A stretch of 32,000 nt of DNA from Alphaproteobacteria bacterium. GTDB taxonomy: Bacteria > Pseudomonadota > Alphaproteobacteria > Rs-D84. Of this stretch, positions 5,457 to 24,855 are shown in pieces; positions within the stretch are counted from its first letter, which is position 1, and each line of letters opens with the position of its first letter. Under the pieces are notes generated by a model. It was not told where the DNA came from. It did no database searches and was given only the letters and a program-made list of their open reading frames with translations. The position numbers and the translations under genes are program-made. The DNA lies in the NCBI GenBank assembly GCA_017475605.1, contig JAFVFD010000004.1, positions 116,224-148,223 of the forward strand, given 5' to 3'.

Positions 5457-5530
5457 AATATAACCCTTTTGATTTTAAAAGCCCCGTAATTATACATGGG
5501 TTTTTCGATAAATCAAGCGATATTCGCGAA

Positions 5531-6040: not shown

Positions 6041-6108
6041 TGATGTGAATTATATCAGATTCGGTTCAGATAAAAAAGGGGTGCAAGTAAAATAAAGCGC
6101 TTGATTTT

Positions 6109-7395: not shown

Positions 7396-7402
7396 ATTTT
7401 TA

Positions 7403-7436: not shown

Positions 7437-7466
7437 TGAAAAGATAAAATATAAATAGAAGAGAGA

Positions 7467-8735: not shown

Positions 8736-9934
8736 ACGAAATAGCAGGCAATCTTATCGATGGCGCAATTCAATGCTATGGTTGTCCGATATTTGATCGG
8801 CTGTTTCAAATTGTGTCTGAATCTGCCGCGGCAATATATCGACCAATGGCATTTTTAGCCACATTGATTTTTGTTATATTGTTTGCATTCTATGTTGTTA
8901 ACGCGGTGTGGCAAAATATCAAGAAAGATGTTCCAGACCCATGGTATCAAAAATCGATTCGCCCAGTTATTATAAATTCATTAATTGCGCTGACTTTTTT
9001 GTGGGCGGGGGTTGGGCTGCCACGACTTATTACGACCGCAACTTTTGAACCTGTTACAGAAATATCATTAATCTATACACAAAGTATGCTTAACATTGAT
9101 AACGATGTTGTTAATGAACGCGTAACATATCAGCCAATGAAAATGTCAGACGATGGTTTTTTCAGACCACAACTGCGCGACAAAATTATTATGCTAATGA
9201 AAACAACGATTACCCAATTTCAATCATATATGAAACTTGGGATTGCGGTGATGGATACCGCGTTTACATGGCGTGCATTGCTGGGTATTGGATCCCTGGT
9301 TAAACATATTATTTTGTTCTTTGTTGGTTTATATATTTTCTATGCGTTCTTTAAATTATTTTTCAGGTTCTGTTGTTATTTCGCAGATATTATTGTTGCG
9401 ATGGCATTGTTTGCGTTTTTCTTTCCGTTATCTTTGGTATTAATTGCATTTCGTGGTGCAGACAATGTTCCATCGTGGATATCGGGTTTGGGTAAAGATG
9501 TTGGTATAAATCAATTTAAGAATCTTATAAACGCAATCGTTGCATTGGCATCTGCGGTGATAACATATACGGTAATTATGGTTATAATAGCGCGTTTCTT
9601 TACATCACCAGATGCATCGGTGGACGAAATTATAACCGCAATAACAACCGGCAATGTTTTCAACGCAGATTTATCTGATGATAACATTGAATCACTTACC
9701 ATTATGGGTACTGTTGTTTTGGTATATGTTATAAACTTTATACAAACCAAAATCCCAGAAGTAAGCAATATGGTTATGTCCGCATTTAATGTAAAGCCTG
9801 ATAATAAACTAAGTGAACAATTGGCAAACGATGCGATGGCATTAACATCTGCTACTTTTAACACTGTGAAAAATGTTGGTAAAATAATAATTAACGGTGG
9901 CGAAACCAAAGACAAGAAAGACGACAAGAAATGA
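8732..9934 (+). CDS. polytopic membrane protein, paralog 3 of 5 (TrbL/VirB6-like architecture, tentative)
   Basis: 400 aa. Its ATG overlaps the paralog 2 stop as ATGA (8732-8735). It has an N-terminal QCYGCPIFDRLFQIV (the IFD..F stretch resembles the VirB6 N-terminus), LPRLITTATFEPV, the core ...AMALFAFFFPLSLVLIAF, and a C-terminal KDKKDDKK. Confidence 0.85.
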   Translation: MNEIAGNLIDGAIQCYGCPIFDRLFQIVSESAAAIYRPMAFLATLIFVILFAFYVVNAVWQNIKKDVPDPWYQKSIRPVIINSLIALTFLWAGVGLPRLITTATFEPVTEISLIYTQSMLNIDNDVVNERVTYQPMKMSDDGFFRPQLRDKIIMLMKTTITQFQSYMKLGIAVMDTAFTWRALLGIGSLVKHIILFFVGLYIFYAFFKLFFRFCCYFADIIVAMALFAFFFPLSLVLIAFRGADNVPSWISGLGKDVGINQFKNLINAIVALASAVITYTVIMVIIARFFTSPDASVDEIITAITTGNVFNADLSDDNIESLTIMGTVVLVYVINFIQTKIPEVSNMVMSAFNVKPDNKLSEQLANDAMALTSATFNTVKNVGKIIINGGETKDKKDDKK

Positions 9935-11370: not shown

Positions 11371-12698
11371 TGATGAAATATGTGCGTACATTTTTATCAA
11401 AATTATTTATCGCAATCGTGTGTGCGGTAATATCTGTGTCTGCGATTGCGGCAACTAATATCCCCGCCGGTGACATTGGCGATTACGGAAACTTTATCAC
11501 CGAACAAAACATAGATTCGTTCCGCAAGGCACTTGTCGGCGAAGATGGCGACTTGGTCTATTTCCAGGATAATTTCCAGAAACAATTAGTGCGCGATTAT
11601 GTCCCAGTAGAAGCACGTGTTGGCCTTGCAATGATGAATGCGTTAACACATGTCGCAAAAATACTGGATACAACACTGGTACGATTTATGGTGATATTCA
11701 TAATTGTTATGTATCTTTTCTGGGTGATGTTCGAAGCATATAATTTCATGTCCGGTGGTACAGGTAATGTAAAAAAACTATTTATGGATATTGGTAAAAA
11801 GGCAATATGGATAATTATATGGATGGCTGTTTTAGAAATAGGCCCCGCTGAATTATTCTTGTATGCAATGATGCCTATTATTTCAATCGGGACTTACTTG
11901 TCTGATTTTATTTTGAACGCGGTTGCGGCTGTATCGGGTGCCGTTTTGCCGGACACATGCGCGGCCATTCATGAATATACTGCTGCAAATGCTGCACCAA
12001 ATATGTTAATAAGTGCGAATGCCGCCGCCGACCTTATGTGTGTGCCGACACGTCTTTCCGGATTTTTCACCAGTGCAATTGCGATGGGGTGGAAATGGAT
12101 GGTTGGTGGCATTGGGCACAGTGCGTTTGGCTTTGCCATTGGTGCCGCATTTGTCGTTGTCTTTGCGTGGAACACGTGGAAATTCGCATTGATGGCATTG
12201 GGTGTAATAATGGACTTGTTCCTGGGGATAATAATGTTGCCGTTTACTGCATTGGCCGAAACAATAACACCAACATCGTACAAGGGACTGGCCGGAAACA
12301 TTTTCAATGGCTTTATAAAACTATTCAATGTGGGGCCGGTAAAGTTGGATGCGCAAATAAGTCGCTTTGTTAATGCCGCAATTTATTTTGTAACATTATC
12401 TATTGTTATTGCGATTTGTGCGGGGTTGCTGTACGGAATAATTGGAACAGATTCGGCAAATCAAATACCAACCTTGGAAAACGATGGCTTTATACCGGCA
12501 TTGCTAACAGGTTTACTTACTGCGTACCTGGCGAATCGCGCAGATGAATTTGCGAATAAACTGGGCGGCAAAGACAAGGGCTTGGTAGATACATCTTTTG
12601 GAACTAAATTCGGCGAAGATATAAAAACATTGGCCACCAACACATATAAAACCGCGAAAGATTGGGCCAAGGCAATCGCCGATGACAAGAAAAAATAA
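11370..12698 (+). CDS. polytopic membrane protein, paralog 5 of 5 (TrbL/VirB6-like architecture, tentative)
   Basis: 442 aa, with a TAATG one-base overlap with paralog 4. It has a signal peptide (...VSAIAATN), the loop Cys pair DTCAAIHE...LMCVPTRL, the core ...VIMDLFLGIIMLPFTALAETI, and a C-terminal ADDKKK. Confidence 0.85.
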   Translation: MMKYVRTFLSKLFIAIVCAVISVSAIAATNIPAGDIGDYGNFITEQNIDSFRKALVGEDGDLVYFQDNFQKQLVRDYVPVEARVGLAMMNALTHVAKILDTTLVRFMVIFIIVMYLFWVMFEAYNFMSGGTGNVKKLFMDIGKKAIWIIIWMAVLEIGPAELFLYAMMPIISIGTYLSDFILNAVAAVSGAVLPDTCAAIHEYTAANAAPNMLISANAAADLMCVPTRLSGFFTSAIAMGWKWMVGGIGHSAFGFAIGAAFVVVFAWNTWKFALMALGVIMDLFLGIIMLPFTALAETITPTSYKGLAGNIFNGFIKLFNVGPVKLDAQISRFVNAAIYFVTLSIVIAICAGLLYGIIGTDSANQIPTLENDGFIPALLTGLLTAYLANRADEFANKLGGKDKGLVDTSFGTKFGEDIKTLATNTYKTAKDWAKAIADDKKK

Positions 12699-12700: not shown

Positions 12701-14773
12701 TTACAAAATCGTTACATAAGACCGCATAACATTTTTAATACCATGCTTGCCAAAGGCGATTGTTAAAACATCACCATTATCGGCAATAACGGTACCATGC
12801 CCCAATTCACTGTGCGACACCAGTTTTCCCACCAATGTTTCGGGTGCGATGCGTGGCAACGCGCGTCGTGGTTGGGAATAAGATGAATATGTTTGACGCG
12901 TGGATGCCGTCCCGCCCTGAAAATTCAAATACCGCGCATCCATTTCAGATATAAACCGCGATTGCGGGTTATACTGTCGCGCACCAAACACCATTCGTGT
13001 CATAGCATTAGAAATTACCGCACGTTTACGGGCGCGTGTAATCGCGACATATGCCAACCGTCTTTCTTCCTCTAGCCCGCCTTCACCTATTGATTTATCA
13101 TTTGGGAAAATACCTTCTTCCCATGCCGGCATATAGACATAATCAAATTCCAGCCCCTTGGCCGCATGAATAGTCATAATGCTTACTGCATTTTTATCGG
13201 CACCCAATTTATCGTCTTCGTCATCATCTGTGGTCATTAATGCGGCCTGTTCCAGAAACTCTGGCAAAGAATCATATTTTGCAATTACATCATTTATCAA
13301 TTCGCGAATATTGTCCAGACGTTCCGCACTGTCCGCATCATGTGAATCGCGCCACATTTGTAAATAGCCCGATTGTTCCAACAGATTTTGTGCCACCTGC
13401 TTTGGTGCCATATTTGCCCAGTCTATGTTAAACACATCCAGGAACGCATCCGCCGATGCACGCTGTTTCGCACTTAAATTCGCCGTCCGCAACCCCGCCA
13501 TTAAATTAGGCCCCGCCGCGCGTAATTTATCAATCGCCGATGCCCCAAATCCGCGCCGCGGTTTTCCAATAATGCGCAGGAATGAAATATCATCGAACGG
13601 ATATACCAACAAACGCAAATACGCAATCGCATCACGAATTTCGGCACGATCATAAAACTTGGTTGCGCCAACAAGGCGATATGAAATACCGCGCCGCGAA
13701 AATTCTTCTTCAAATAATCGCGACAGGCTGCCTGCGCGAATAAGGACCGCATGTTTATTAAAATCGCCCGCACGCGAAATTGCATCGGCAATAACCCGCG
13801 CTTCGTCAATATCACTGGGGACAGTCAACACATATACCGGTTCGCCAGCCACATCTGACTTCACACTGCGCAAATCTTTGCCAAGGCGACCCCGATTATT
13901 CCGTATTAACGAATTTGCCGCCCCCAAGATATTTCCTGTACTGCGGTAATTTGTTTCCAGGCGAATTATCGTTGCGTTTTTATATACCTTGTCAAAATTC
14001 AGAATATTTTTAATTTCCGCGCCGCGCCACGAATAAATAGATTGGTCATCATCGCCAACACAACAAATATTCGGGTTTTCCGACCCCCGCGTTAGCATTT
14101 CCAACAACTGCATTTGGGCGGCATTGGTATCCTGGAATTCGTCCACCATGATATATTTAAATTGACGTTGATAACGGGCCAAAATTTCGGGCTGTGTATT
14201 GAATAACTTTAAGACATATAAGATTATATCACCAAAATCAATTGCCCCCATACGCGCCAATTCTGCGTTATATGCAATATATGTTTTGTCTTTATTGTCC
14301 AGCGCAGACAACCCCCGGTCTTTGATAGAAGAAAATTGTTCGACATAATCGCCCGGGGTTTTCGTTGATTGTCCCATATCCGCCAGCACAGATTTAACCA
14401 CAGCCCGCTGGTCATCTTCGCCAAAAATGATAAAGTCATTCCGCAACCCCGCCGCCGCGGCATTTGCACGTAATATTCGCAAACAAATTGAATGGAATGT
14501 CCCACACCAAAGGTCGCGTGCGTACCACCCCGCGCCATCTTCCGCGAATGCGGCAATGCGCGTTTTCATTTCATTTGCGGCCTTGTTTGTGAATGTTAAT
14601 GCCAAAACCTGCCATGGCAAAGCCAATGCTTTATTTAAAATATATGCCACACGTGTTGTTAAAACGCGGGTTTTCCCGGTTCCCGCACCAGACAGCACCA
14701 AAACCGGCCCCTCTGTCGTTTTTACCGCCGCCAATTGTTCCGCGTTAAGATTTTCTAGCATTCGTTCCATCAT
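12701..14773 (-). CDS. uvrD: UvrD/PcrA/Rep-family ATP-dependent DNA helicase (superfamily 1)
   Basis: LNAEQLAAV...VLSGAGTGKT (Walker A), VDEFQDTN, SWRGA, TNYRS and TIHAAKGLEF are typical SF1 helicase motifs. The track ORF starts at a GTG (14788). The ATG at 14773 is preferred because TATTAT lies 6 nt upstream of it. Confidence 0.9.
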   Translation of the reverse strand: MMERMLENLNAEQLAAVKTTEGPVLVLSGAGTGKTRVLTTRVAYILNKALALPWQVLALTFTNKAANEMKTRIAAFAEDGAGWYARDLWCGTFHSICLRILRANAAAAGLRNDFIIFGEDDQRAVVKSVLADMGQSTKTPGDYVEQFSSIKDRGLSALDNKDKTYIAYNAELARMGAIDFGDIILYVLKLFNTQPEILARYQRQFKYIMVDEFQDTNAAQMQLLEMLTRGSENPNICCVGDDDQSIYSWRGAEIKNILNFDKVYKNATIIRLETNYRSTGNILGAANSLIRNNRGRLGKDLRSVKSDVAGEPVYVLTVPSDIDEARVIADAISRAGDFNKHAVLIRAGSLSRLFEEEFSRRGISYRLVGATKFYDRAEIRDAIAYLRLLVYPFDDISFLRIIGKPRRGFGASAIDKLRAAGPNLMAGLRTANLSAKQRASADAFLDVFNIDWANMAPKQVAQNLLEQSGYLQMWRDSHDADSAERLDNIRELINDVIAKYDSLPEFLEQAALMTTDDDEDDKLGADKNAVSIMTIHAAKGLEFDYVYMPAWEEGIFPNDKSIGEGGLEEERRLAYVAITRARKRAVISNAMTRMVFGARQYNPQSRFISEMDARYLNFQGGTASTRQTYSSYSQPRRALPRIAPETLVGKLVSHSELGHGTVIADNGDVLTIAFGKHGIKNVMRSYVTIL

Positions 14774-14829
14774 TTCTTTATAATACACTAAAATTTAATC
14801 AAAGACACATTTATTTTACGGGATTGGGG

Positions 14830-15513
14830 ATGAAAAGGGTTATTTGTTTTGATATTGAAACGACGGGGCTGGAATATGCGCGTGGCGACCGCTGTATTGA
14901 AATCGGGGCGGTGGAAATAGACGATGGGGTTATAACGGACCGTACTTTTCATGAATATATTAACCCGGACGGCAAAATTATTCCGAATGATTCCTATATG
15001 GTCCACAAGATATCCAATGCTTTTTTGGAAGACAAACCAAAAATGTCGGTTGTTGCGCCACGTTTTTTGGAATTTATTGGCGATGCACCAATTGTTGCGC
15101 ACAATGGGGCGGACTTTGACTTTCCATTCATGAATTTTGAATTATCAAAATTGGGCTTGCCCCCTATTCCCAAAAGCCAACAACTTGATTCTATTGTAAT
15201 TGCGCGTAATCGTGTATTTGGACCAAAAAGTCTTTCACTGGATTCACTTGCTAAATGGTTTGGAATATCACTTACCGCGCGTGCGGATGCGCATGGCGCG
15301 CTTATTGACGCCGAGATTTTGGCCAAGGTATTTATCGAACTTGAAAACACCGCGCCGGCACCCGACATTCACGATGTAATTGCGAAACAGCACGCGGCAT
15401 TTCTGGCACAACCAAAGACAGACGGATCGTTTCCGCACCGCACATTTACCGCACACGACGACGAATTGGAAAACCACAACGCATTTATAAAAAAAATCAA
15501 CGGGGAAAAATAA
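14830..15513 (+). CDS. dnaQ: DNA polymerase III epsilon subunit-like 3'-5' exonuclease (DEDDh)
   Basis: VICFDIETTGL (ExoI), VAHNGADFDFPF (ExoII) and HGALIDAEILAKV (ExoIII). The track ORF starts at a TTG (14824). I trimmed it to the ATG at 14830, which follows a G-rich Shine-Dalgarno sequence. Confidence 0.88.
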   Translation: MKRVICFDIETTGLEYARGDRCIEIGAVEIDDGVITDRTFHEYINPDGKIIPNDSYMVHKISNAFLEDKPKMSVVAPRFLEFIGDAPIVAHNGADFDFPFMNFELSKLGLPPIPKSQQLDSIVIARNRVFGPKSLSLDSLAKWFGISLTARADAHGALIDAEILAKVFIELENTAPAPDIHDVIAKQHAAFLAQPKTDGSFPHRTFTAHDDELENHNAFIKKINGEK

Positions 15514-15583
15514 CCAGCCTGTGTTGCACAACAAAGGCCCCAACATTACCATATTCGTTTATTTATAACCCAAACAACGACTA

Positions 15584-16957
15584 TTAATCGGCATCGTCCC
15601 ATATTATGAACATATAGAATGGTCGTCCACCTGTATTTGCCAGATTCGGATATGTCCATGGCAAATCTTCCATTTTGATATATTTATTCACCGGTTTTCC
15701 CGTTTCATCATAAATTTTTTGTGATGTAAATGTAAAATCACCGCCCGCTGTACCATCAATATGATATGTTTTGGTAAGGTCCTTTTCCCACATTGAATAT
15801 ATACCAGCAAATTTCTTTCCGCTTGGCGGGGTCAGGTTGTTCACATAATTGGTCAAATCTGGCAATTGCAACATTCCCGTATTACCACTTTCGTCCTTGC
15901 CATAAGAAGTACCAACGGCCGTTCTGAATAAAAATACCCTTGAATAACCATTATTGGTATCCATCAAAGATACAGGATTGTTATAACCCCACGGCAAGAA
16001 ATAATATGTATCGGCACTTTCATAAGTATCTGGATTATATCCATTTGGGGTAAATTGATTAATTCTCGCCATACCATAGCCAAGGTTATAGACATTTATT
16101 TCATTTTCGCATGGAATCAAATGACGCACATCTTTGTTCATCCTTAATGCCCAACATTGACCAATAAAATCTTTTACAATCGCCGCACAATCTTCTGGCC
16201 CCGCAAGGGTTGATTGATTTGTTGTCTGAACAGGTTTAATAAATGTGTCGCCGGTCTTGGCCGCGGGATAACCTGATAAGTCATTAGAACATGTATTTTC
16301 AAGGGTCTTCGGTTCTTCTGGGGTTACAGGGTCCACGGGTTCCGGGGCGGGATTTTCCACACGCAAATATAAATCTGTCGCGGACGAAGTGGTTGCGGGG
16401 GCTGAGCCACTGGCACTATAAACCTGATTCCCAGATTTCTGGCTGTCATATGCCCCACTAAATGTAACCCCTGTCTTGCTTTGTGTGTTCGCAAAAAGGG
16501 TTTGTAAATCTGGCAATTTATTTTTTATCTTTATCAAGGTAACATATCCGGCATTACCAGATAATTCAATATACTTTTTAAGGTTTGCATATTTATCAGA
16601 AACCGTACTGTCAACATGCAATTGTATCAAATTGTCGGATGAAACCAATGCCTGTTGAACAGTCTGTGTTGTTGCCGCACGGTTTTTTGTTCCACCGGAT
16701 AATGTCCGTGTATTCCGGGTGGTTGCACGTGCCGCATCTGAAACAATTGATGAACGCGATTTTACTTGCGTGTTTTTGGCAACACCTGAAACTTGTACCC
16801 CTGCCCGTTGGGCCACCGTACGGGTTGCGATTGTATTTCGTGGTGTTGGCGCAACCGTTGCCCGTGTGGAAATGTTTTGGGTCGCGGCGACCCCAGTGGT
16901 AATCAATCCGATTTCCAAAAATAATACAGACAAAAACATATATATCTGTTTCGTCAT
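15584..16957 (-). CDS. secreted protein A (457 aa) with an Arg/Thr-rich repeat N-module and a distinct Asn/Tyr/Gly-rich C-terminal domain
   Basis: Signal peptide, then STRATVAPTPRNTIATRTVAQR...ARATTRNTRTLSGGTKNRAATT, a Pro-rich linker (PAPEPVDPVTPEEP), and a four-Cys segment. It starts 8 nt after the stop of protein B, preceded by AGGA, so the two probably form an operon. Confidence 0.8.
   Translation of the reverse strand: MTKQIYMFLSVLFLEIGLITTGVAATQNISTRATVAPTPRNTIATRTVAQRAGVQVSGVAKNTQVKSRSSIVSDAARATTRNTRTLSGGTKNRAATTQTVQQALVSSDNLIQLHVDSTVSDKYANLKKYIELSGNAGYVTLIKIKNKLPDLQTLFANTQSKTGVTFSGAYDSQKSGNQVYSASGSAPATTSSATDLYLRVENPAPEPVDPVTPEEPKTLENTCSNDLSGYPAAKTGDTFIKPVQTTNQSTLAGPEDCAAIVKDFIGQCWALRMNKDVRHLIPCENEINVYNLGYGMARINQFTPNGYNPDTYESADTYYFLPWGYNNPVSLMDTNNGYSRVFLFRTAVGTSYGKDESGNTGMLQLPDLTNYVNNLTPPSGKKFAGIYSMWEKDLTKTYHIDGTAGGDFTFTSQKIYDETGKPVNKYIKMEDLPWTYPNLANTGGRPFYMFIIWDDAD
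16664..16876 (-). repeat. degenerate Arg/Thr-rich coding repeats (protein A, aa 28-98)
   Basis: Recurring (A/T)R(A/T)T(T/V) and RNT units in the translation, with locally GC-richer DNA containing many ACG/CGN codons. Confidence 0.6.
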
Positions 16958-16965
16958 ATTATATC

Positions 16966-19803
16966 CTATAGTGCAGTTATATCCGTATCACAATCTGCGA
17001 CACCAACGAATTCGCTGTCGTTACCACTCATTGCATATAAAAGGCAAATCCCGTCCACCGTCTGAATCAATGAAGCATTGGCATTTGATGCCGATACTGT
17101 GGCAGACAACTGCGATGTTTCCGCATTTAACGTTTGTGTAATTTGATTGGCAACGTAAGAATAAGCACAACCACCACCAACCGTCCCCTCGCCATGGGCA
17201 TTATAGACATAGGAATCATCCGTACACCTGCATCCAACGGCCGTACAGCCATTAAGTGTACCAGCGACAATATCGCTTTCCGTACATGACGAATCTTCTG
17301 TACGCAATGCCCTATCCCCCATAACCGCCGAACACGCAGATGCGGGTGTATATGGAACACATGTTGTCCCGGATACGGTGTAAGAATTTTTACATCTGCA
17401 ATATTTTTGTGCACAGCCAGCCAAACCGGATGTGGTTGCGGTACAGGATGCATCATATGTGGCAATGGTGGAACTAAGCGGGCACGATGTCGTAATCTCG
17501 CCAGATGAATCATCAGATGACGAATCGCTGGAATCCCCGGAATTACTGGGGTTTTCAGCTATCCCCCCCCCCAAGTTATCAGAGGCAGAGCATACGCCGT
17601 TTTTCATTGTATAACCATCATTGCAAACACATGTTCCATATAAACTGTGTGTCATATGGTCGCCACACGCCGCAACACATGCCCCAGACCACGCAACATA
17701 ACCCGAATTGCAAACACATTGTGTATTTACATAACCGGCATCTCCGTTCGTTGCAATCGTGCCTGCGGTTGATGTATATGTACTGTTATCCGGGCACAGC
17801 AGCGATTGATAGAACATATCAGACACACAGTTAATTATCGCATCGTTATAACCGGCCGTGCCGTATGTCTGGCTGCCTGCTGCGGTACATTGTGATACAT
17901 GGTATGTTTTATCTCCAACTGGCAAATCGTCGTACGGCTTTATTGTTGGTTCACCTGTGAATAATGCAAAGCCACAGGTTAATGCCACACTACGACACGC
18001 ACCACGCATTACACTGTAAATATTTGTTGTACTGGCCGCCGATGCCCACGAATTAACCTGGGTAATTTGGGAATTATAGCATGCCGCGACATCGGCGATA
18101 CAACTGGACGCATATTCGGAAATAATTTTCTGTTGTGCGGCCTTGATATTGACCATTGCACGCTGAACATAGTTCACAACAATATCGTTATATTGTTTAT
18201 ATTTTTTATTGCTGTCATATGTATAATATTGGCATTTATCCAAAACAGGACGGCACAAACCTTCGTCGGTGGCCTTTTCCTTGGTCCCGATTTTTTGTAA
18301 CAAGTATTTAATCACACATTTACCATCATTTGCGCATGTGTTTGTTCCAATTTGTGTTTCGGAACCATATGCAGATTGTAAAAACGCACTATTAATCGCG
18401 GAATTGTTATATTCTGTCATAAACGATTGAATAACGGTAATATCCTGGCCCAGTACGACTTCGCCATTTTCATCAATATAAGCCTTGGTCGGATCAACAC
18501 ATTTGTAATAGTTATCGCCACAAACCATGTCGTCCTTCATACAGGTTTCAAGTGCCGCAACACAGCCCTTGGCATCATATTGGTTTTTATTCTGTAACAC
18601 CGCAAGGCGCGCCTTTTGTAACATCAAATTAGCACTGTTCACATTGGAAACCAGGGTTTCGTTCATCTTCTTTAAACCGGCCTCGTACGCAACACAATCG
18701 CGGTCAATCGCCAAATCATAGTTTCCTGTTATCTGGGCCTGGGTTGCACCCGCGTTTTTACAACTGTTCAAAATGGTGCTGCAACGACGACGGGCCGTAT
18801 TATATAACTCTGTTCCGCGCAGGTTTGATATACTGCTTGTATTTGAACCAAGATTCAAGAAATCTAAACTAAATATATCTGTTGGTTCCGACGAAAATGT
18901 TAAATCCATATCCAAACCAAAATTTGTTTCAGATGAATACGATGTTGTATTGCTGGTCGGATCCTTAATCATAGATTCGATTTGCTTTAACATATTACGC
19001 GTTGTTGATGTATCTGTGGTCCCGTTAAGTGCTTCTTCGGCCTCGGTTTCTGTCATGATGGCGCGAATTTCATCGGCCGATAACCCAACATAACGAATTG
19101 CCTGGGCAACTTCGTTCAATTTTCTGTTTGCTTCGGTTGCGGCCTTTTCCACCTTGGCATACTTGGACAAATTAGCACTGCAACTGCACCGTTTTTGGTT
19201 CGCATCCACCGCCGCACAGAATTGATCCATACATTCGTTATACTGTTCCTGACACGATTTATTCAATTCCGCGGTTTGTTCCAGTTTTTCCTTGGCCTCG
19301 GTAATAGATTCCTTGGTCGCCTGGACCTGCTTGGTCGCACGACCGGCAACCTTTTGAATATCTGTGCTAATATTAGAACCGGTCTGTCTGTCCGTTCCCG
19401 CAATGGTTGCGCGACCGCCATAGTCGGCAAAACTTGGGCGCAAAACAACCCCCGCGCGCCGAACAACCGGATTTTCATTTATATCACCGGTTGCACGCGA
19501 TTTTGTGGTCGCACCTGAACTGGTCGCATTACGTGTCGCGGTACCGCGCGACAAAGATGACACATTTGCGCGCGATGTCGTCCGCGCAACAGTTGTACGC
19601 GTTGCCGCATCAACCGATTCCGCAACCGTTCCACGCCCCGCCGCCGCGGTTGCACGCGTTGTCGTACGTGCGGTTGTATCATTCGATACCGCTTTTTCAG
19701 ATAAATTGCCCGGAATTACGCGCGATGCAACAACACCATCGGCCGCAAATGCGGGTCCGACAGCCAGCGCCATCAATAAAAATAGCGGTTTGGACATTCT
19801 CAT
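16966..19803 (-). CDS. large secreted cysteine-rich protein B (945 aa): Arg/Thr-rich N-module, Cys/coiled-coil core, EGF-like C-x-C repeats, acidic Ser/Asp linker, C-terminal Cys-rich module
   Basis: Signal peptide MRMSKPLFLLMALAVGPAFA/AD. Residues 41-160 contain TTARTTTRATAAAGRG...VARTTSRANVSSLSRGTATRNATS. The core is shared with protein C (YNECMDQFCAAVDANQKRCSC). Further features are CVCNSGYVAWSGAC, CVCNDGYTMKNGVC and SNSGDSSDSSSDDSSGE. Confidence 0.85.
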   Translation of the reverse strand: MRMSKPLFLLMALAVGPAFAADGVVASRVIPGNLSEKAVSNDTTARTTTRATAAAGRGTVAESVDAATRTTVARTTSRANVSSLSRGTATRNATSSGATTKSRATGDINENPVVRRAGVVLRPSFADYGGRATIAGTDRQTGSNISTDIQKVAGRATKQVQATKESITEAKEKLEQTAELNKSCQEQYNECMDQFCAAVDANQKRCSCSANLSKYAKVEKAATEANRKLNEVAQAIRYVGLSADEIRAIMTETEAEEALNGTTDTSTTRNMLKQIESMIKDPTSNTTSYSSETNFGLDMDLTFSSEPTDIFSLDFLNLGSNTSSISNLRGTELYNTARRRCSTILNSCKNAGATQAQITGNYDLAIDRDCVAYEAGLKKMNETLVSNVNSANLMLQKARLAVLQNKNQYDAKGCVAALETCMKDDMVCGDNYYKCVDPTKAYIDENGEVVLGQDITVIQSFMTEYNNSAINSAFLQSAYGSETQIGTNTCANDGKCVIKYLLQKIGTKEKATDEGLCRPVLDKCQYYTYDSNKKYKQYNDIVVNYVQRAMVNIKAAQQKIISEYASSCIADVAACYNSQITQVNSWASAASTTNIYSVMRGACRSVALTCGFALFTGEPTIKPYDDLPVGDKTYHVSQCTAAGSQTYGTAGYNDAIINCVSDMFYQSLLCPDNSTYTSTAGTIATNGDAGYVNTQCVCNSGYVAWSGACVAACGDHMTHSLYGTCVCNDGYTMKNGVCSASDNLGGGIAENPSNSGDSSDSSSDDSSGEITTSCPLSSTIATYDASCTATTSGLAGCAQKYCRCKNSYTVSGTTCVPYTPASACSAVMGDRALRTEDSSCTESDIVAGTLNGCTAVGCRCTDDSYVYNAHGEGTVGGGCAYSYVANQITQTLNAETSQLSATVSASNANASLIQTVDGICLLYAMSGNDSEFVGVADCDTDITAL
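17563..17572 (-). repeat. homopolymeric G10 (C10 on the plus strand) tract inside the protein B coding sequence
   Basis: The minus strand reads GAT AAC TTG GGG GGG GGG ATA GCT GAA (DNLGGGIAE). This is the only G/C homopolymer of this length that I found in the window. Confidence 0.9.
19324..19683 (-). repeat. degenerate Arg/Thr-rich coding repeats (protein B, aa 41-160)
   Basis: The translation is dominated by R, T, A, S, G and V, with recurring ARTT / SRxxT units. Confidence 0.6.
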
Positions 19804-19814
19804 TATTACAATAA

Positions 19815-19825
19815 ATTATATCACA
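19815..19825 (-). promoter_or_regulatory. TGTGATATAAT extended -10 element upstream of protein B
   Basis: An exact 11-mer on the minus strand lies 11 nt upstream of the ATG at 19803, with no Shine-Dalgarno sequence between them. Confidence 0.5.
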
Positions 19826-19863
19826 AACCGCGTTAATAAAAAAGAAACTTTATTATAAAAAAC

Positions 19864-19890
19864 AATAAAAAATCCCGCATATGCGGGATT
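19864..19890 (-). terminator. intrinsic terminator after rpmA
   Basis: Perfect palindrome aatcccgcat/atgcgggatt, followed on the minus strand by TTTTTTATT. Confidence 0.8.
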
Positions 19891-19893
19891 TAA

Positions 19894-20160
19894 TTATTTT
19901 GCTTCGTCTTCTGGGACGACCGACACTGTTTTGCGATCACCCAAACCACGTTTGAATTTCACGATGCCCGCAATTTTTGCGAACAGTGTGTGATCTTTGC
20001 CCATACCAACATTCAATCCTGGGTGCACCGCGGTGCCACGTTGACGAATGATGATATTGCCTGGGATAACGCGGCTGCCACCAGATTTTTTAACGCCTAA
20101 TCTGCGTCCCGCAGAATCGCGTCCGTTGCTGGTCGAAGTACCTGCTTTCTTGTGTGCCAT
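19894..20160 (-). CDS. rpmA: 50S ribosomal protein L27
   Basis: [25 protein letters not shown]... is the canonical L27 sequence. A GGAG Shine-Dalgarno sequence lies upstream. Confidence 0.95.
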
Positions 20161-20172
20161 AGTTTAAACTCC

Positions 20173-20472
20173 TTAGCCCTTGATATCCGTTATTTTCAAA
20201 ACAGTAATGAACTGACGATGACCCTTGGTCCGACGATAGTTTTGACGACGTTTTTTCTTGAACACCAAAACCTTGTCAGCGCGTTTCTGTTCAACCACTT
20301 CGGCAATAACTTTTGCACCATCAACTGTTGGTGTGCCGATTTTTTCGCCCAGCATTAAAACCTGGTCAAATTCAATTTTGCCGTCGGCATTAAGTTTTTC
20401 AACCTTGATAACATCGCCCTTTTGCACGCGATATTGTTTGCCACCGGTTTGAAAGATTGCAAAATCGCTCAT
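20173..20472 (-). CDS. rplU: 50S ribosomal protein L21
   Basis: [27 protein letters not shown]... is the canonical L21 sequence. It lies immediately upstream of rpmA. Confidence 0.95.
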
Positions 20473-20536
20473 ATTCTTGCTCTTTTTGTTCGTTTTTTAT
20501 GTTATTTTTCGCACTTTTGTCGAAAAGTTTATGCAA

Positions 20537-20564
20537 ATTGTATGTTTTTTATACCAAAAGTCAA
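20537..20564 (-). promoter_or_regulatory. candidate sigma70 promoter of rplU-rpmA
   Basis: The minus strand reads TTGACT, a 16-nt spacer and TACAAT, roughly 60 nt upstream of the rplU ATG. Confidence 0.5.
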
Positions 20565-20592
20565 GTTTTTTATTACTTATTTTTGCAAATCA

Positions 20593-20619
20593 AACAAAAA
20601 ACCGCCCAAACGGGCGGTT
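20593..20619 (-). terminator. intrinsic terminator after secreted protein C
   Basis: Hairpin aaccgccc-aaac-gggcggtt, followed on the minus strand by TTTTTTGT. Confidence 0.8.
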
Positions 20620-20623
20620 GTTA

Positions 20624-22711
20624 TTAATCACGTGTCCAATCGCGAATTGCCTGGACACCGACATCCTGCAAACACTTTTCGCGTTGTGCCGCCGAATTAC
20701 CTGTGGCACCCGATGCGATGGTCGCGGCAGTTGCCCCCGTCCCATTAAGGATCTCGTTCAATGTCACGATATTACGACATGTGTTTTTGGTATAATCTGC
20801 ACTGTTAAGACAGTCCGTTGTGTTGTCTTGTTTGTCGATAATCGCTGTGAACTGTGCCGTTGACGGATTACAAATCATCGTTTCATAGCAATGCGGAACA
20901 TTTGAAATCTGGGCACAGTATGTTTTGATACGTGCATCTGTCCATTTTGCGCCACTTGCTGTTGTATTTGACGCCTGGGTTTCATAACAGTCATAGATTT
21001 CGCTTAAACATTCGTCAAAGTTTGTACCTGCGGCAATTGCATCGGAACGGATTGTTTCGCGTTCTTCGGTTGCGAATTCAAGACGCTTTTGCTGTAATGC
21101 CTGCTGTGCGGCAACCTTTTGATAACCGATATTTTGTGCCGTCTGGCGCAGTTGTTCGCCATATGCATCGCAATCCGCATTCGCATCCAGCGCATATTTT
21201 TGCATAATGCTACGACGGGCATCGGCAACCGGACCACGCAGTGATGAATATGGGTCGCCCGACGATGTCGAATAACCAAAACATGTCGCCGAATTAGATG
21301 ATGTATAACCAGTATTCGGTGTTACAAAGTTCAATTCATATGTTCCGGAATTATTAACGGAAATCCAACTGTTATAGTTATATGGGCATTGGGATGCGCC
21401 ATTACCGCATTTACGGCCACCGGACGGTGGGGTTCCGCATGCCTCGTATATACCGTTAAAGCAGGAATCAAGAACACGCGCACAGACATTATTGTGTGCA
21501 TATTCAAATAATTCATAACCCCATGTTTCCGCCAATGAATCTTTCAATTCATCCGATGATGCAAATGCACCATCAATGCCGGCCATACCGTTAACGACCC
21601 CACCAATAATTGCCGCCGCATCGGACAATGCATCATTATCGTTGTTAAGAATCGTTATTGTTTGTTCCTTGGCTTCGGCCCAAGATTGCAGGGAAGCAAT
21701 AATATCAGACGAAGAACCGTCAATATTTGCTATATCAAAACCAAATGTGTTTGCGCCTTCACCGGTTGACGAACAATACTTTGGCTGTGTACAAGGGCTC
21801 AAACCATTCCCCTTGCCGTCATAAAAGTGGTGATCCGCACACCATTCCTGAGCCTCGTCTGAATTCTGGCCATAGTGGTTTGTAACTTCCTGCCATGAAA
21901 CACAGTTCATAACCTTTTCAGCATCGGTCAATTGGAATGCATCGGAAACATCCTTGCCCTTGTTCGCAATCAACAATGCCAATTCACCCGCAACCTTGAT
22001 TAATTCTTCATTAGCAGATTCAAGTGCGGTTTCCGCCTCGGCAAAAGCCTTGACACGACCGGCGCACGCGCAACGACGTTGTGCCGCATTACGCGCAGTA
22101 CAGATTTCATCCATACATGCATAATATGATTCCATACAGTTGTTGTATGCATCCGCCGAAATCAAGCCAGTCGAAGAATCAATAATTGTTGAATAATTAC
22201 CGGTGTACAATTTACTGGAAAGATACGAATATGTGTTTGCACGTGCTGCACTGCCCTTGTATCCCTGGATAGCACTGCCAGTAAGGGATATGCGTGATGG
22301 TGTTGTTGCAGTACGCGCCACAACATTACGCGATGTGGTCCGCGCAGTCGTTCCACGCGATACAACATTACGCGCCGTATTGTTTACACGCGATACTGTA
22401 TTTGTTGTGGTTGCACGTGATACAACCCCACGCGACGGACTTGTTGTTCCCGCGACACGACCGGTCGCCGATGTTGTCCGCGCAACAGTTGCATTCGACA
22501 CACCACGATTTGTTGTACGACCCGATGCACGATTTGTCGCATTTGTGCGCGGCGACGCATTCGCCTGTACCGGTGTTATTGCCGGCGCAATTGGATCTGC
22601 CAACACAGCGCGCATCGATAAAAATGTAGAACACACAAAAAACGCACCCGCCAAAAGAAATACGGTTCCAACAGCATTTTTTGCAACCAATGCGATATCA
22701 CGTCTTTTCAT
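20624..22711 (-). CDS. secreted cysteine-rich protein C (695 aa), paralog of protein B
   Basis: N-terminal hydrophobic signal or anchor. Residues 50-140 read PRTNATNRASGRTTNRGVSNATVARTTSATGRVAGTTSPSRGVVSRATTTNTVSRVNNTARNVVSRGTTARTTSRNVVARTATTPSR. The Cys scaffold is YYACMDEICTARNAAQRRCAC, and there are further blocks shared with B (e.g. NADCDAYGEQL vs DRDCVAYEAGL). An AGGAGAG Shine-Dalgarno sequence precedes the ATG. Confidence 0.85.
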   Translation of the reverse strand: MKRRDIALVAKNAVGTVFLLAGAFFVCSTFLSMRAVLADPIAPAITPVQANASPRTNATNRASGRTTNRGVSNATVARTTSATGRVAGTTSPSRGVVSRATTTNTVSRVNNTARNVVSRGTTARTTSRNVVARTATTPSRISLTGSAIQGYKGSAARANTYSYLSSKLYTGNYSTIIDSSTGLISADAYNNCMESYYACMDEICTARNAAQRRCACAGRVKAFAEAETALESANEELIKVAGELALLIANKGKDVSDAFQLTDAEKVMNCVSWQEVTNHYGQNSDEAQEWCADHHFYDGKGNGLSPCTQPKYCSSTGEGANTFGFDIANIDGSSSDIIASLQSWAEAKEQTITILNNDNDALSDAAAIIGGVVNGMAGIDGAFASSDELKDSLAETWGYELFEYAHNNVCARVLDSCFNGIYEACGTPPSGGRKCGNGASQCPYNYNSWISVNNSGTYELNFVTPNTGYTSSNSATCFGYSTSSGDPYSSLRGPVADARRSIMQKYALDANADCDAYGEQLRQTAQNIGYQKVAAQQALQQKRLEFATEERETIRSDAIAAGTNFDECLSEIYDCYETQASNTTASGAKWTDARIKTYCAQISNVPHCYETMICNPSTAQFTAIIDKQDNTTDCLNSADYTKNTCRNIVTLNEILNGTGATAATIASGATGNSAAQREKCLQDVGVQAIRDWTRD
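22292..22564 (-). repeat. degenerate Arg/Thr-rich coding repeats (protein C, aa 50-140), including a 42-nt-spaced direct repeat
   Basis: caacattacgcg occurs at 22321-22332 and again at 22363-22374. This corresponds to RNVVAR / RNVVSR, 14 aa apart. Confidence 0.65.
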
Positions 22712-22797
22712 TCATTACTCTCCTGCGGATGCAAAGTCAATGAATCCGCCCTTTTTGGCATGCCAAACTGGGCATACCACCATTATAGTTTGTCTTT

Positions 22798-22826
22798 ATT
22801 ATAACATTTTTAGCGCAATCTGTAAA
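22798..22826 (-). promoter_or_regulatory. candidate promoter of protein C
   Basis: The minus strand reads TTTACA, a 17-nt spacer that ends in TGT, then TATAAT, about 85 nt upstream of the ATG at 22711. Confidence 0.35.
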
Positions 22827-22861
22827 GACAGAAAACAGGCTTTGCCCACCAAGAATACAAG

Positions 22862-22893
22862 AATAAAAAATGCCCCGAAGGGCATTTTTTATT
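22862..22893 (-). terminator. intrinsic terminator (symmetrical A/T-flanked hairpin) after the 145-aa gene
   Basis: aaaaaatgccc-cgaa-gggcatttttt. The stop codon of the 145-aa gene lies in the flanking run. Confidence 0.75.
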
Positions 22894-23326
22894 CTGCTTT
22901 GAACAAGCCTTTTAACAAACCGCCCGTTTCGCGCGCATCAGATTCAACCTGCTTTGCGGCCGCCTTTACTTCATCGGCGGTTGCTTTTGCTTCGGCGACC
23001 TTGGCATTGGCGGCATCGGTTGCCTCGGTTCCGGCGGCATTTGCCGCACCGGTTAATTCAGCAGCCTGTTCCTGGATAGATTTTTTAACGAAGTTCGCAC
23101 ATTTTTTTGACAATGATTTTACATTATCAACCAAGCATGTCGGAATTGTCATATCGCCAGTCAATATTTCTGGACAGAATTTGCTGACTTCGTCTTTATT
23201 ACAAGCCTCGGCCAAAGTGGTTGGTTCCGCCGCCTTTTGCCCCAAACCCAAGAAGTCAAACAAACCAGCATGTGCAGATGTTGCCGCCATAATGGCTGCT
23301 ACACCAAATACCATTGTTTTTTTCAT
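22889..23326 (-). CDS. small secreted/periplasmic protein with one four-Cys 'cysteine-rich repeat'-like unit and an Ala/Lys/Glu-rich helical tail
   Basis: Signal peptide MKKTMVFGVAAIMAATSAHA/G. The segment ACNKDEVSKFCPEILTGDMTIPTCLVDNVKSLSKKCANFV fits the C..D...FC...CL......LS..C pattern of the bacterial/Golgi cysteine-rich repeat family, as far as I recall it. Confidence 0.7.
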   Translation of the reverse strand: MKKTMVFGVAAIMAATSAHAGLFDFLGLGQKAAEPTTLAEACNKDEVSKFCPEILTGDMTIPTCLVDNVKSLSKKCANFVKKSIQEQAAELTGAANAAGTEATDAANAKVAEAKATADEVKAAAKQVESDARETGGLLKGLFKAE

Positions 23327-23402
23327 ATTTTCCCCTTTTGTTTATGAACACATAAATCATAGAAATTATCCGCCCGCCCGTCAATATTTTTTAAGGAAAA
23401 TA

Positions 23403-23430
23403 TTGACAACGCACCACCAAATGATACATT
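23403..23430 (+). promoter_or_regulatory. candidate sigma70 promoter
   Basis: TTGACA (23403-23408), a 16-nt spacer and TACATT (23425-23430), about 22 nt upstream of the ATG at 23453. Confidence 0.5.
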
Positions 23431-23452
23431 GTTAAAAAAAAGAGAAACGCAG

Positions 23453-23749
23453 ATGATTCAAACGCTAAACGATGTTTATAATTTAATTTTGAACCCAAAG
23501 TATTCTATGCAATACATCCCCGACATGTTTGCCAATCGAACACAAATTTTGACCGATGGTACATTTGGTAATCGGGTTGAAGTCAGCAGGACAAAAACCA
23601 CCATGGATATCTATGTTTTTCAAAACGGCAACTCGCAATACTATGAACACATATCCCGTCGCAATCGCGACTATAAACGTATTCATGATGCCGTTTTTGC
23701 CAAAGGAATGGCGGCAATGGTTAAAGATATCGAAGAAAATTATCGGTAA
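23453..23749 (+). CDS. hypothetical protein (98 aa)
   Basis: ORF MIQTLNDVYNLILNPKYS.... The track start at 23429 is a TTG lying inside the putative -10 element. The 3' end overlaps the convergent acyltransferase gene by 10 nt. Confidence 0.5.
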   Translation: MIQTLNDVYNLILNPKYSMQYIPDMFANRTQILTDGTFGNRVEVSRTKTTMDIYVFQNGNSQYYEHISRRNRDYKRIHDAVFAKGMAAMVKDIEENYR

Positions 23750-24855
23750 CGCTTTTCCTGTATTCGTTTCGCCAACTTCTTCGCTGGCATTTCGACGCCG
23801 TAATACGTTATCAATGTCATAATTATAACGCACACAATCGTCAAAACCACATTACCAATTGGTTCAGAAATTACAATTTGTGGATACGGTCTCCATAACA
23901 CTTTTCGCAACAAGAAATAAACAAAAGAATGACACATATACAAAGAATACGTGTATCGTGCCAAAACATTAATACATGTTGGCTTGTTCAATTTCTGACT
24001 TAGCCACCCACGATTTGACAACATAATAACAAGCAATATCACAAAAAGCACCAACATAAAACCAACATTTCGCAACATTGTCGTGTTTAGGAAAAAGGCA
24101 TAAATCAAAGCCGATATACCAACAATTTCCGCAACAGAAAAAAATTTATCCTTGTTAATACTTGCCGTATTATTCGCTTTTCGTTTTATGTAATTTTGGT
24201 ACCATTGTGCAATCAAATAACCAATCCCAATTCCACCAATGGCACGCAATAACCCAACATTTATTATTCCATGCCAGGTTTGGGCAAACAGCAACTGTTT
24301 AAAGTTTATCGGCATTTGGAACAACATCGTATATGCCAACAACACCAAAACAAGCACTATGATATTTAATTTTTCTCTATCAATATGACGCATTAAAAAA
24401 TACAATCCAGCAGACACCCACAACAATGCAGAAACATACCAGAACGGCGTAACAACAGTATGATTGCCTGCAATCCCAGTTCCAGAAAGCCCAAAAAATG
24501 TAACCATATACCATAAGAGATTAAATTTATACAAGCCAAACAGATACGAAACAAAATAGCACCCCATAATAAACACAAGTACCGGCCAAAATCTAATAAC
24601 TCTTTTCTTTATAAACTGATATACACTACTTTTTGCATCAAATGTATAAACCAAAAGGAAGCCCGATAATATAAAAAACAAATCTGTTGCCCATCGTCCA
24701 TTTCGACTTGCGCTGGACAAAAATGAATACATGGGAATTTCTGCAAAATGTTGCAGGTTTCTTTTGCTGAACAAATGAAATGTTGCTATAGCAACAGTCG
24801 CTATTACCCTTAGTAAATCTAACTGAAATATCTTAGGTTTTTCATATTGTTGCAT
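23740..24855 (-). CDS. acyltransferase family 3 (OafA/YrhL-like) integral membrane protein
   Basis: 371 aa with about 10 TM segments. The N-terminal LDLLRVIATVAIATFH motif is typical of Acyl_transf_3. Confidence 0.7.
   Translation of the reverse strand: MQQYEKPKIFQLDLLRVIATVAIATFHLFSKRNLQHFAEIPMYSFLSSASRNGRWATDLFFILSGFLLVYTFDAKSSVYQFIKKRVIRFWPVLVFIMGCYFVSYLFGLYKFNLLWYMVTFFGLSGTGIAGNHTVVTPFWYVSALLWVSAGLYFLMRHIDREKLNIIVLVLVLLAYTMLFQMPINFKQLLFAQTWHGIINVGLLRAIGGIGIGYLIAQWYQNYIKRKANNTASINKDKFFSVAEIVGISALIYAFFLNTTMLRNVGFMLVLFVILLVIMLSNRGWLSQKLNKPTCINVLARYTYSLYMCHSFVYFLLRKVLWRPYPQIVISEPIGNVVLTIVCVIIMTLITYYGVEMPAKKLAKRIQEKRYR

Follow-up and report, generated by a model that had tools for sequence, protein, structure and literature searches.

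We analyzed a 32,000-nucleotide window from an alphaproteobacterium of the order Rs-D84 (assembly GCA_017475605.1, contig JAFVFD010000004.1, positions 116,224 to 148,223), in which three genes, here called A, B and C, each encode a predicted signal peptide directly followed by an arginine- and threonine-rich segment (the tail). Our preferred reading, to which we give a probability of roughly 0.4, is that the tail serves as a disordered, polycationic arm by which a surface protein, acidic and rich in disulfides, is tethered or held at a distance, that B and C belong to an undescribed superfamily of Rs-D84, and that A is an accessory protein. The descriptive conclusions (the architecture, its conservation, the charge pattern, the Arg spacing, the predicted disorder and the lack of any known family) are firm. 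A preliminary description of this DNA had reported the lengths of the three open reading frames (ORFs), an 8-nt gap between B and the downstream gene A, the position of C across the ribosomal protein genes rplU-rpmA and several short motif strings, and all of these are present as claimed. The three genes are as follows.

15584-16957, minus strand: gene A, ORF of 457 amino acids (aa), a strain-specific orphan
16966-19803, minus strand: gene B, ORF of 945 aa, a paralogue of C and B-type superfamily member
20624-22711, minus strand: gene C, ORF of 695 aa, a C-type superfamily member, apparently monocistronic

The preliminary description treated A, B and C as a family of three with differing downstream domains. 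When B and C were compared by BLASTP, B residues 1-360 aligned with C at E=6e-15, over the tail and the first part of the Cys-rich core; B and C are paralogues and their Cys-rich cores are homologous. The family therefore stands for B and C and fails for A, which is unrelated to both, and the difference in downstream domains stands only for the A body. Both B and C carry the signature C-x6-C-M-D-x2-C-x8-R-C-x-C, behind which lies a helical segment that contains a conserved Glu; the signature is absent from A. In a 31-sequence cross-subfamily alignment (A2), the columns C, C-M-D, C and R-C-x-C and the downstream Glu are invariant; the signature is also found in a second alignment (A3) and, by regular expression, in every full-length member.

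22064-22138, minus strand: C residues 192-216, superfamily signature, invariant in alignments A2 and A3 and matched by regular expression
19180-19254, minus strand: B residues 184-208, superfamily signature (CQEQYNECMDQFCAAVDANQKRCSC), found by BLASTP, regular expression and alignment

An exhaustive phmmer search with C returned 185 matches among 1.84 billion representative proteins, 37 of them at E<=1e-30 and essentially confined to the C-type group, while the remaining listed full-length matches align with C residues ~40-270, that is, with the tail and the core start. The superfamily spans these 185 representative clusters down to about 25-30% identity and has at least four subfamilies (C-type, B-type, a 'CMDEFCANKD' type and a 'CMDQFC..NDTYRRC' type). 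The homologues of C number over 1,200, none of them with a name other than 'hypothetical', and the few members with a source name are hypothetical proteins of metagenome-assembled genomes (MAGs) of Alphaproteobacteria, Proteobacteria or Rickettsiales, i.e., of uncultured gut Alphaproteobacteria (order Rs-D84). All of the approximately 99 diverse full-length members examined (60 superfamily sequences were inspected by eye and all fetched ones were analyzed computationally) share one layout, namely a signal peptide, an Arg-rich tail and the motif C-x3-[YF]-x2-CMD-x-[FIY]-C. Their tails are 90-280 aa long with 7-15% Arg, mostly 0-5% Lys, few acidic or hydrophobic residues and a variable share of Ser, Thr, Ala, Gln and Pro. 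Ser plus Thr reaches 35-50% in many tails; in some members it is only 9-15%, with the Arg content kept.

A scan of genome contigs with C gave 211 confirmed loci, of which 80 were retained, mostly from Candidatus Enterousia or from uncultured Alphaproteobacteria/Rickettsiales MAGs; they come from animal and human guts and include one circular genome of 958,618 bp. These related loci hold 36 B-type orthologues of 715-1849 aa with up to 108 Cys. Sequence and profile searches of B and C in Pfam (listed to E<=1), NCBIfam, PHROGs and PDB gave nothing above curated cut-offs, only sub-threshold or coiled-coil noise, and the subfamilies tested had no Pfam match except for C-terminal Ephrin_rec_like Cys repeats in one member. 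A profile search with the cross-subfamily core returned only 25 short fragments, and no literature on the A, B or C proteins was found. The preliminary description had not recognised the tail module as any described family, and this was borne out in Pfam, NCBIfam, PHROGs, PDB and Foldseek (PDB and BFVD), with no match above the cut-offs. We concluded that B and C probably represent an undescribed, lineage-restricted, Sec-exported, disulfide-rich and strongly acidic superfamily. Because the tail is constant across this superfamily, B and C share it by descent; judged from sequence, the tail is an integral and ancient part of the architecture of one family. The proposal that it is a portable unit attached to different passengers does not hold for B and C, since it is constant in ~99 members of one superfamily.

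Next, we consider the composition of the tails, which are located as follows.

22277-22597, minus strand: C residues 39-145, Arg/Thr-rich polycationic tail with 15 Arg, no Lys and 1 acidic residue
19483-19743, minus strand: B residues 21-107, a conserved 'SRVIP' start and then a tail rich in Arg, Thr and Ser, delimited by composition
16658-16882, minus strand: A residues 26-100, basic Thr/Ala/Arg-rich tail with 9 Arg, 3 Lys and 1 acidic residue, net charge +11

Consistent with the preliminary description, the segment directly behind the signal is dominated by Arg, Thr, Ala, Ser, Asn, Val and Gly (80% in A, 84% in B and 89% in C), and Arg plus Thr make up 31-36%. The three tails have 75-107 residues with 9-15 Arg, 0-3 Lys and 1-7 acidic residues, and the ratio R/(R+K) is 0.75-1.00 in the tails versus 0.24-0.49 in the cores of the same proteins. 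The Arg residues are also ordered. Compared with shuffled sequences, the C tail has no Arg-Arg gap of 3 or less (p=1e-4), an enrichment of gaps of 4-6 (p=0.0015) and an enrichment of [SA]R (p=2e-4); the order in the B tail is weaker (no Arg-Arg gap of 3 or less, p=0.012), and the spacing and motif tests on the A tail against its own shuffles are not significant (p=0.17-0.69). Over the 99 diverse superfamily members, a spacing of 5 between Arg residues was observed 247 times versus 79 expected, and spacings of 1, 2 and 3 were observed 28, 37 and 39 times versus 133, 117 and 103 expected, so that RR, RxR and RxxR are 3-5-fold depleted family-wide. Around the tail Arg of these members, Val is enriched 2.6-fold at -3 and Ser 2.2-fold at -1, and Gly or Ala is enriched at +1. 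The tail unit is a degenerate pentapeptide [TV][VT]SR[AG], and the tail is more than biased composition. The C tail ends in the conserved element RxVxSR...RxVxAR-TAT...(S/A)R(I/V)SL.

It could be argued that such a tail is meaningless low-complexity sequence or that the ORFs are mis-called, and the lack of a DNA-level repeat and of functional annotation anywhere would fit this view. We regard it as extremely improbable, since the architecture is conserved in 185 clusters to about 25-30% identity, charge and Arg content are tightly conserved, the spacing is significant, and the genes are intact with Shine-Dalgarno (SD) sites for A and C. In a census of 3,679 ORFs of at least 80 aa from the window and the 80 related loci (1.4 Mb), Arg/Thr-rich, acid-free 50-residue windows occur only in A-, B- and C-type ORFs; the related DNA consists of ~20-kb neighbourhoods of the same locus, so this census is locus-level. 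The tail region always lies directly behind a signal peptide. No DNA tandem repeat was found under the tail region, and an origin of the tail from such a repeat was rejected for this reason.

The evolution of the tail was followed in 63 C orthologues of at least 70% identity. Mean pairwise identity is 0.82 in residues 1-43, 0.40 in the tail, 0.73 in the linker and 0.77-0.79 in the core. The orthologous tails are nevertheless alike in composition (85-120 aa, 14.2-17.5% Arg, Lys near 0.3%, net charge +12 to +18), and the bodies behind them are acidic, with net charges of -17 to -35. The same asymmetry is seen in 32 B orthologues, with tails of 83-157 aa, ~10% Arg, ~1% Lys and net charges of +2 to +13, and bodies of -12 to -83 with typically 30 Cys, and also in A (tail +11, body -10). 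Within the fast-evolving tail, eight Arg columns are invariant in the 63 C orthologues, and the element RxVxSR...RxVxAR-TAT...ARVSL is kept down to 31% identity. In an AlphaFold2 (AF2) model of C, residues 27-170 have a predicted local distance difference test score (pLDDT) of ~30 and no secondary structure. In the tails, 4-5% of the residues are order-promoting, versus ~25% in the rest of these proteins, and a charge-hydropathy plot places the tails of A and C among disordered sequences. The earlier claim of a basic, disordered module agrees with this net positive charge and predicted coil. We concluded that the tail has the evolutionary signature of a disordered region under compositional selection.

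A passive role would account for part of this pattern: the tail may be an entropic linker or charge balancer that solubilises the acidic body, masks its charge during or after export, or sets a distance from the membrane or from an N-terminal attachment point, with no specific ligand. The fast sequence turnover with composition kept and length variable, the positive tail and negative body found in each of the three proteins, the predicted disorder and the A tail, which lacks motif order and still has a net charge of +11, all fit such a spacer. We nevertheless think it unlikely, because a spacer has no need for Arg over the more easily exported Lys, nor for a 5-residue spacing across subfamilies or conserved Arg columns. 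No residue passes Sec more slowly than Arg, and Sec substrates contain comparatively little of it (PMC9110029, PMC10465204). That a tail with 10-16% Arg and almost no Lys is placed behind a Sec signal despite this penalty suggests selection for the guanidinium group itself.

Export of the three proteins was assessed by inspection and hydropathy, from which the cleavage sites were predicted. Each protein has a single N-terminal hydrophobic segment that ends at a small-x-small site, in agreement with the Sec-type signal claimed before, and a basic n-region, a hydrophobic h-region and small residues at -3/-1, as expected for Sec and signal peptidase I, are found in A, B and C. Predicted cleavage (marked by a slash) is at GVAA/TQ in A, PAFA/ADG in B and AVLA/DP in C.

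19744-19803, minus strand: B residues 1-20, signal peptide (MRMSKPLFLLMALAVGPAFA followed by ADG), with similar signal peptides in orthologues
22598-22711, minus strand: C residues 1-38, a long basic n-region, hydrophobic segment and AVLA/DP, a signal peptide and possibly more

The three proteins would therefore be exported, cleaved and extracytoplasmic. No match to the lipobox [LVI][ASTVI][GAS]C was found in the first 45 residues of A, B and C, and none to the twin-arginine translocation (Tat) motif (S/T)RRxFL in their n-regions; the lipoprotein and Tat-substrate readings were rejected accordingly. An autotransporter (type V) reading was also rejected, as there is no Pfam match and the C-terminal half of C is predicted helical at high confidence. 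A mitochondrial or plastid transit-peptide-like reading, suggested by a region rich in Arg, Ser and Thr and poor in acidic residues, was discarded as well, since a Sec signal stands in front of the region and a disulfide-rich body behind it, and its length is 2-5 times that of such a peptide. The basic n-region of C is 16 residues long, and residues 1-43 (including DPIAP) have a fixed length and an identity above that of the folded core (~0.78) in the 63 orthologues, which is unusual for a cleaved signal peptide. Each subfamily has its own motif at the predicted mature N-terminus: A/DPIAP in the C-type, A/ADG..SRVIP in the B-type and A/DDxxDxxRAA in another subfamily. The mature protein would start with DG or DP in orthologues and in C, and with ADG in B of the window. 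From the cleavage site to the first Arg (position +8 in B and +17 in C) the sequence is neutral or acidic. Together with the depletion of adjacent Arg, this stretch leads us to infer that the polycation is tuned to stay exportable.

The same data bear on the suggestion that the tail is a modification substrate (Thr/Ser O-glycosylation, or modification of Arg) or, as a variant, an export brake that slows SecYEG so that the Cys-rich body oxidises and folds in order. Many tails do contain 35-50% Ser plus Thr, and Arg is rate-limiting for Sec transport (PMC9110029), so 10-15 evenly spaced Arg at the front of the chain must slow export. We consider both variants very unlikely. The conserved neighbouring genes include neither a glycosyltransferase nor an enzyme that modifies Arg, not every member that keeps the Arg content is rich in Thr, and genomes as reduced as these could hardly accommodate modification systems of their own; a brake ahead of the body would hold up its folding rather than put it in order. 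The Arg/Thr modification proposed in the preliminary description is not supported, as no modification enzyme is conserved nearby; the membrane O-acyltransferase gene (Acyl_transf_3) of the window is missing at that position in the closest relatives, L001-L003, and is probably a strain-specific insertion.

Behind the tails lie the Cys-rich bodies, with the following features.

20627-22276, minus strand: C residues 146-695, conserved linker and acidic, mostly alpha-helical core with 24 Cys (AF2)
19255-19482, minus strand: B residues 108-183, pre-core segment (..NPxVRRAGxVLRPS..GGRATI..QTGSN..) and predicted helix, conserved in B-type orthologues and fragments
17359-17718, minus strand: B residues 696-815, EGF-signature-like Cys repeats (CVCNSGYVAWSGAC, CVCNDGYTMKNGVC, CRCKNSYTVSGTTC) in the length-variable C-terminal region

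An AF2 run on the alignment of the 63 close C orthologues gave a pLDDT of 44, and a diverse C-type alignment gave a usable core (model m1e2362975ab1), with pLDDT 70-93 over most of residues 180-330 and 390-695 and a predicted 88-residue helix. Foldseek found no fold match for this model in PDB or BFVD. Cys counts are even (24 in mature C, 44 in B of the window), which, like the EGF-signature repeats of B, fits an extracytoplasmic location. The PROSITE EGF signature is C-x-C-x2-[GP]-[FYW]-x4-8-C; B has two exact matches (residues 696-709 and 725-738; P(>=2)=2e-4 in shuffles), and its Pfam EGF-type match (Pvs28 EGF) is weak at E=0.022 and 15.3 bits versus a cut-off of 26. The likeness to EGF-like domains is confined to the variable C-terminus of B and does not extend to the tail. 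Relative L002 has a B-type gene upstream of C (4701-9845), and L003 has two B-type copies, one on each side of C (5283-9797 and 12914-18463). The length polymorphism of B-type proteins and the copies on either side of C suggest a rapid expansion of the C-terminal Cys-repeat region.

With such bodies, the tail of one molecule could in principle bind the acidic body of a neighbour (B-B, C-C or B-C) and build a surface coat or periplasmic lattice, the proteins being abundant. The conserved asymmetry of positive tail and negative body, the two paralogues that are kept together flanking rplU-rpmA in nearly all relatives, and the elongated, helical core with its 88-residue helix would suit this electrostatic self-assembly. 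The argument is purely inferential, no lattice-forming fold was recognised by Foldseek in PDB and BFVD, and the A-type has the same charge pattern though it is a rare accessory gene; we rate self-assembly as having little chance of being correct.

Protein A differs from the other two in origin.

15587-16657, minus strand: A residues 101-457, passenger domain rich in Asn, Tyr and Gly, with 4 Cys and no relation to B or C

A has no similarity to B, C or any fetched superfamily member and no Pfam, NCBIfam, PDB or PHROG match above curated cut-offs. Among 5.8 billion proteins it has a single homologue (P0121, 674 aa, 61% identity over the C-terminal 350 residues), whose gene occupies the corresponding slot, 7 nt behind a B-type gene (L081, 3825-5849). 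P0121 has a signal peptide and a basic Thr/Ala/Arg-rich tail of net +13, in which RAR and RAVRAR clusters break the spacing rule. It also has an extra block of ~215 aa resembling an internal duplication (two separate places in P0121 correspond to A residues 99-161 and 108-457), and is followed in L081 by an additional 142-aa gene (5851-6279) that is absent from the window. A is missing from all 80 genome loci, which marks it as a strain-specific accessory gene. As its tail has no significant spacing order, A has the composition in common with B and C and not the repeat grammar. A derivation of the A tail from the B tail by local duplication was rejected, as there is no similarity beyond composition. 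The portability of the tail claimed earlier is thus partly retained: a tail of similar composition sits on an unrelated body in A (tail +11, body -10) and in P0121, the only support for portability, and it does so without the spacing rule.

It is useful to compare these proteins with known systems. The basic N-terminal 100 residues of chlamydial OmcB carry its whole adhesive, heparan-sulfate-binding activity (PMC2229832). OmcB resembles B and C in the sequence of signal peptide, short basic region and Cys-rich body, and its bacterium is likewise obligately dependent on a host. However, its basic domain is ~40 aa long, mixes Lys and Arg and has a clustered XBBXBX motif, whereas the tails described here are 85-280 aa, Arg-dominated and depleted of clustered basic residues. 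No relationship to OmcB was seen, there being no match to any Pfam model, the DUF11 repeats included. A disordered region with a polycationic stretch on the surface protein NHBA (neisserial heparin-binding antigen) binds anionic glycans (PMC6104945). NHBA, which is a lipoprotein, ends in a beta-barrel, has its Arg clustered in a single short stretch and shows no homology to the tails. Mycobacterial HBHA binds anionic glycans through Lys-rich repeats on a surface protein; these are C-terminal Lys/Ala/Pro repeats, and neither HBHA nor NHBA has evenly spaced single Arg. OmcB and NHBA are functional analogies and not relatives.

Other similarities are more distant. Pentapeptide-repeat proteins (PF00805, A(D/N)LXX, a right-handed quadrilateral beta-helix) have only the five-residue periodicity in common with the tails, which have no match to this family in Pfam at E<=1, a degenerate and indel-rich consensus [TV][VT]SR[AG] and an AF2 prediction of coil rather than beta-helix. 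Ser-Asp (Sdr/Clf) and serine-rich repeat stalks are low-complexity, fast-evolving and length-variable segments between an anchor point and a ligand-binding domain. They are acidic or neutral, C-terminal by an LPXTG motif, glycosylated by dedicated enzymes and encoded by DNA repeats; compared with these Gram-positive stalks, the tails here are N-terminal and cationic, lack a DNA repeat and occur in a diderm alphaproteobacterium. RcsF has a positively charged unstructured linker right after the export signal and before a small disulfide-bonded domain, but RcsF and similar tethers are lipoproteins with linkers of 10-50 aa, whereas the proteins studied here have no lipobox, far longer arms and an Arg grammar. 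Godessart and colleagues reportedly described in 2021 that outer-membrane proteins of Brucella and Agrobacterium with Ala-Asp N-termini are tethered to peptidoglycan (at meso-diaminopimelic acid, mDAP) by L,D-transpeptidases. These are alphaproteobacterial as well, and the predicted mature start here is Asp or Ala-Asp (A/ADG in B of the window, A/DP in C). They are beta-barrels, whereas the C core is predicted helical with no beta-barrel, and many Sec substrates begin with acidic residues once the signal is removed, so the likeness is weak.

We now return to the tethering arm. After cleavage of the signal peptide, the arm would act as a flexible, multivalent guanidinium tether and spacer that holds the acidic Cys-rich body on an anionic polymer, with the variable C-terminal Cys repeats presented outward. 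Candidate ligands are the cell's own envelope, through phosphates of lipopolysaccharide or lipids or through carboxylates of peptidoglycan, and, outside the cell, glycans of a host or a partner cell's surface. Spacing single Arg evenly may be a compromise by which a polycation can still be exported through SecYEG, and A may be a recently acquired or evolved accessory secreted protein with the same design of cationic tail and acidic body, without the repeat grammar. Several observations weigh against the tether. The heparin-binding motifs XBBXBX and XBBBXXBX were not found in the A, B and C tails, and clustered basic residues are depleted. The conserved Arg columns and the RxVxSR...RxVxAR element hint at specific recognition over generic electrostatics. 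The B tail is borderline and falls on the 'folded' side of the charge-hydropathy plot, and low pLDDT is only an indirect sign of disorder. Finally, with no beta-barrel, lipobox or known secretion signal, the proteins have no evident route to the surface and may be retained in the periplasm.

The genes around A, B and C follow a conserved order across related loci, PPDK-(D145)-C-rplU-rpmA-B-DnaQ-UvrD-membrane array, although C is found in other gene contexts in relatives L006 and L060. Further features of the locus are listed below.

19894-20472, minus strand: rplU-rpmA (ribosomal proteins L21 and L27; L27 by Pfam annotation), between C and B
20173-20472: rplU, between C and B
19894-20160: rpmA, between C and B
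22798-22826, minus strand: promoter-like site 5' of C, TTTACA-17-TATAAT with TG, 11/12 matches
20600-20619, minus strand: terminator-like hairpin directly 3' of the C stop codon, 8 bp with 6 GC and a T-run
19870-19891, minus strand: terminator-like hairpin after rpmA, separating rplU-rpmA from B-A

The membrane array (6109-12698) consists of five weakly paralogous polytopic membrane proteins of 428, 422, 400, 479 and 442 aa with 6-9 hydrophobic segments and Lys-rich C-termini; one gene is on the minus and four are on the plus strand. It adjoins UvrD in most Enterousia loci, and searches of Pfam and NCBIfam with its proteins gave no match up to E<=10. A VirB6/TrbL identity, considered partly since a relative encodes VirD4, was rejected for lack of a Pfam match at E<=10. 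That relative, L084, has a gene for a VirD4/TraG-type coupling protein of type IV secretion systems (PF02534, TrwB) at 5170-7431 on the minus strand, a few kb from a B-type gene, which suggests that at least some members of the lineage carry components of such systems.

It was proposed that the tail is a recognition tag for a dedicated export or attachment machinery, for which this array was a candidate; the machinery might, e.g., translocate the protein to the surface or attach its mature N-terminus covalently to peptidoglycan. The short conserved motif at the predicted mature N-terminus of each subfamily, the first 43 residues of C that are more conserved than the core, the conserved RxVxSR...RxVxAR element and the five-paralogue array 2-10 kb away speak for such a tag. 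Most of the tail, however, is not conserved in sequence, an acidic or neutral early mature region is also required by ordinary Sec export, and no known sorting-system domains were found in the window. The link to the array found no support either: DnaQ and UvrD, which are housekeeping genes, stand between B and the array, the array is on the other strand, L083 and L084, which are more distant relatives, do not have it beside B, and C occurs apart from this context. We judge a sorting tag to be rather improbable.

As for expression, SD-like sites were found upstream of C (AGGAG) and A (AGGA). The promoter-like site of C is a consensus match only, and the number of such sites in the region equals the shuffle expectation. 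No SD-like sequence was seen before the B ATG (19804-19843), and an extended -10-like TGTGATATAAT lies ~12 nt upstream of this ATG; this suggests a very short leader, a leaderless transcript or a start at the second Met (residue 3). In L083, C was called as two ORFs (275 and 438 aa, 4640-6780), which may reflect a frameshift, a pseudogene or an assembly error, and B is followed by PBP1a-MraY-FtsW-MurG in place of DnaQ-UvrD. In the window, a 410-aa 'ORF' with VVRATV-type repeats (22203-23435, plus strand), antisense to the tail-coding region of C and to a neighbouring gene, is an artefact of biased codon content and no gene. Directly upstream of C is a gene for a 145-aa secreted protein (22889-23326, minus strand) with a signal peptide, 4 Cys and an Ala/Lys/Glu-rich C-terminal half; the gene has a terminator hairpin of its own at 22860-22895. 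Twelve related loci have kept this protein, and all its family matches are sub-threshold (Cys_rich_FGFR, E=0.0023). The Acyl_transf_3 gene (23740-24855, minus strand) lies between PPDK and this 145-aa gene in a GC trough of 0.36-0.39.

These proteins are of interest for the biology of their lineage. Enterousia, in the order Rs-D84, has genomes below 1 Mb that lack respiration and most biosynthesis, and Rs-D84 bacteria have been proposed to be obligate symbionts or parasites that make cell contact via unknown membrane or surface proteins (PMC12306168). As an unannotated family that is conserved in nearly all relatives beside ribosomal protein genes, B and C are foremost candidates for components of the envelope, or of the apparatus for cell contact, in this lineage. 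Sec substrates as a rule avoid Arg (PMC9110029); the tail is a natural exception, and its family could show how much positive charge Sec tolerates and why guanidinium specifically is used. Should the tail turn out to bind polyanions in general, it would offer a small anchoring peptide that can be designed. A bolder reading, which we hold to be doubtful, is that the evenly spaced Arg pentapeptide array is a new type of module for attachment to the envelope or to a partner cell, a multivalent guanidinium 'velcro' whose form lets it pass SecYEG in spite of the strong Arg penalty, with the CMD-signature proteins as principal surface or contact proteins and a design that is re-usable on unrelated bodies, as in the A-type. 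Rs-D84/Enterousia bacteria are widespread in human and animal guts and are thought to live off other cells (PMC12306168); if the 'velcro' reading is true, the CMD-signature proteins would attach these genome-reduced bacteria to the cells they depend on.

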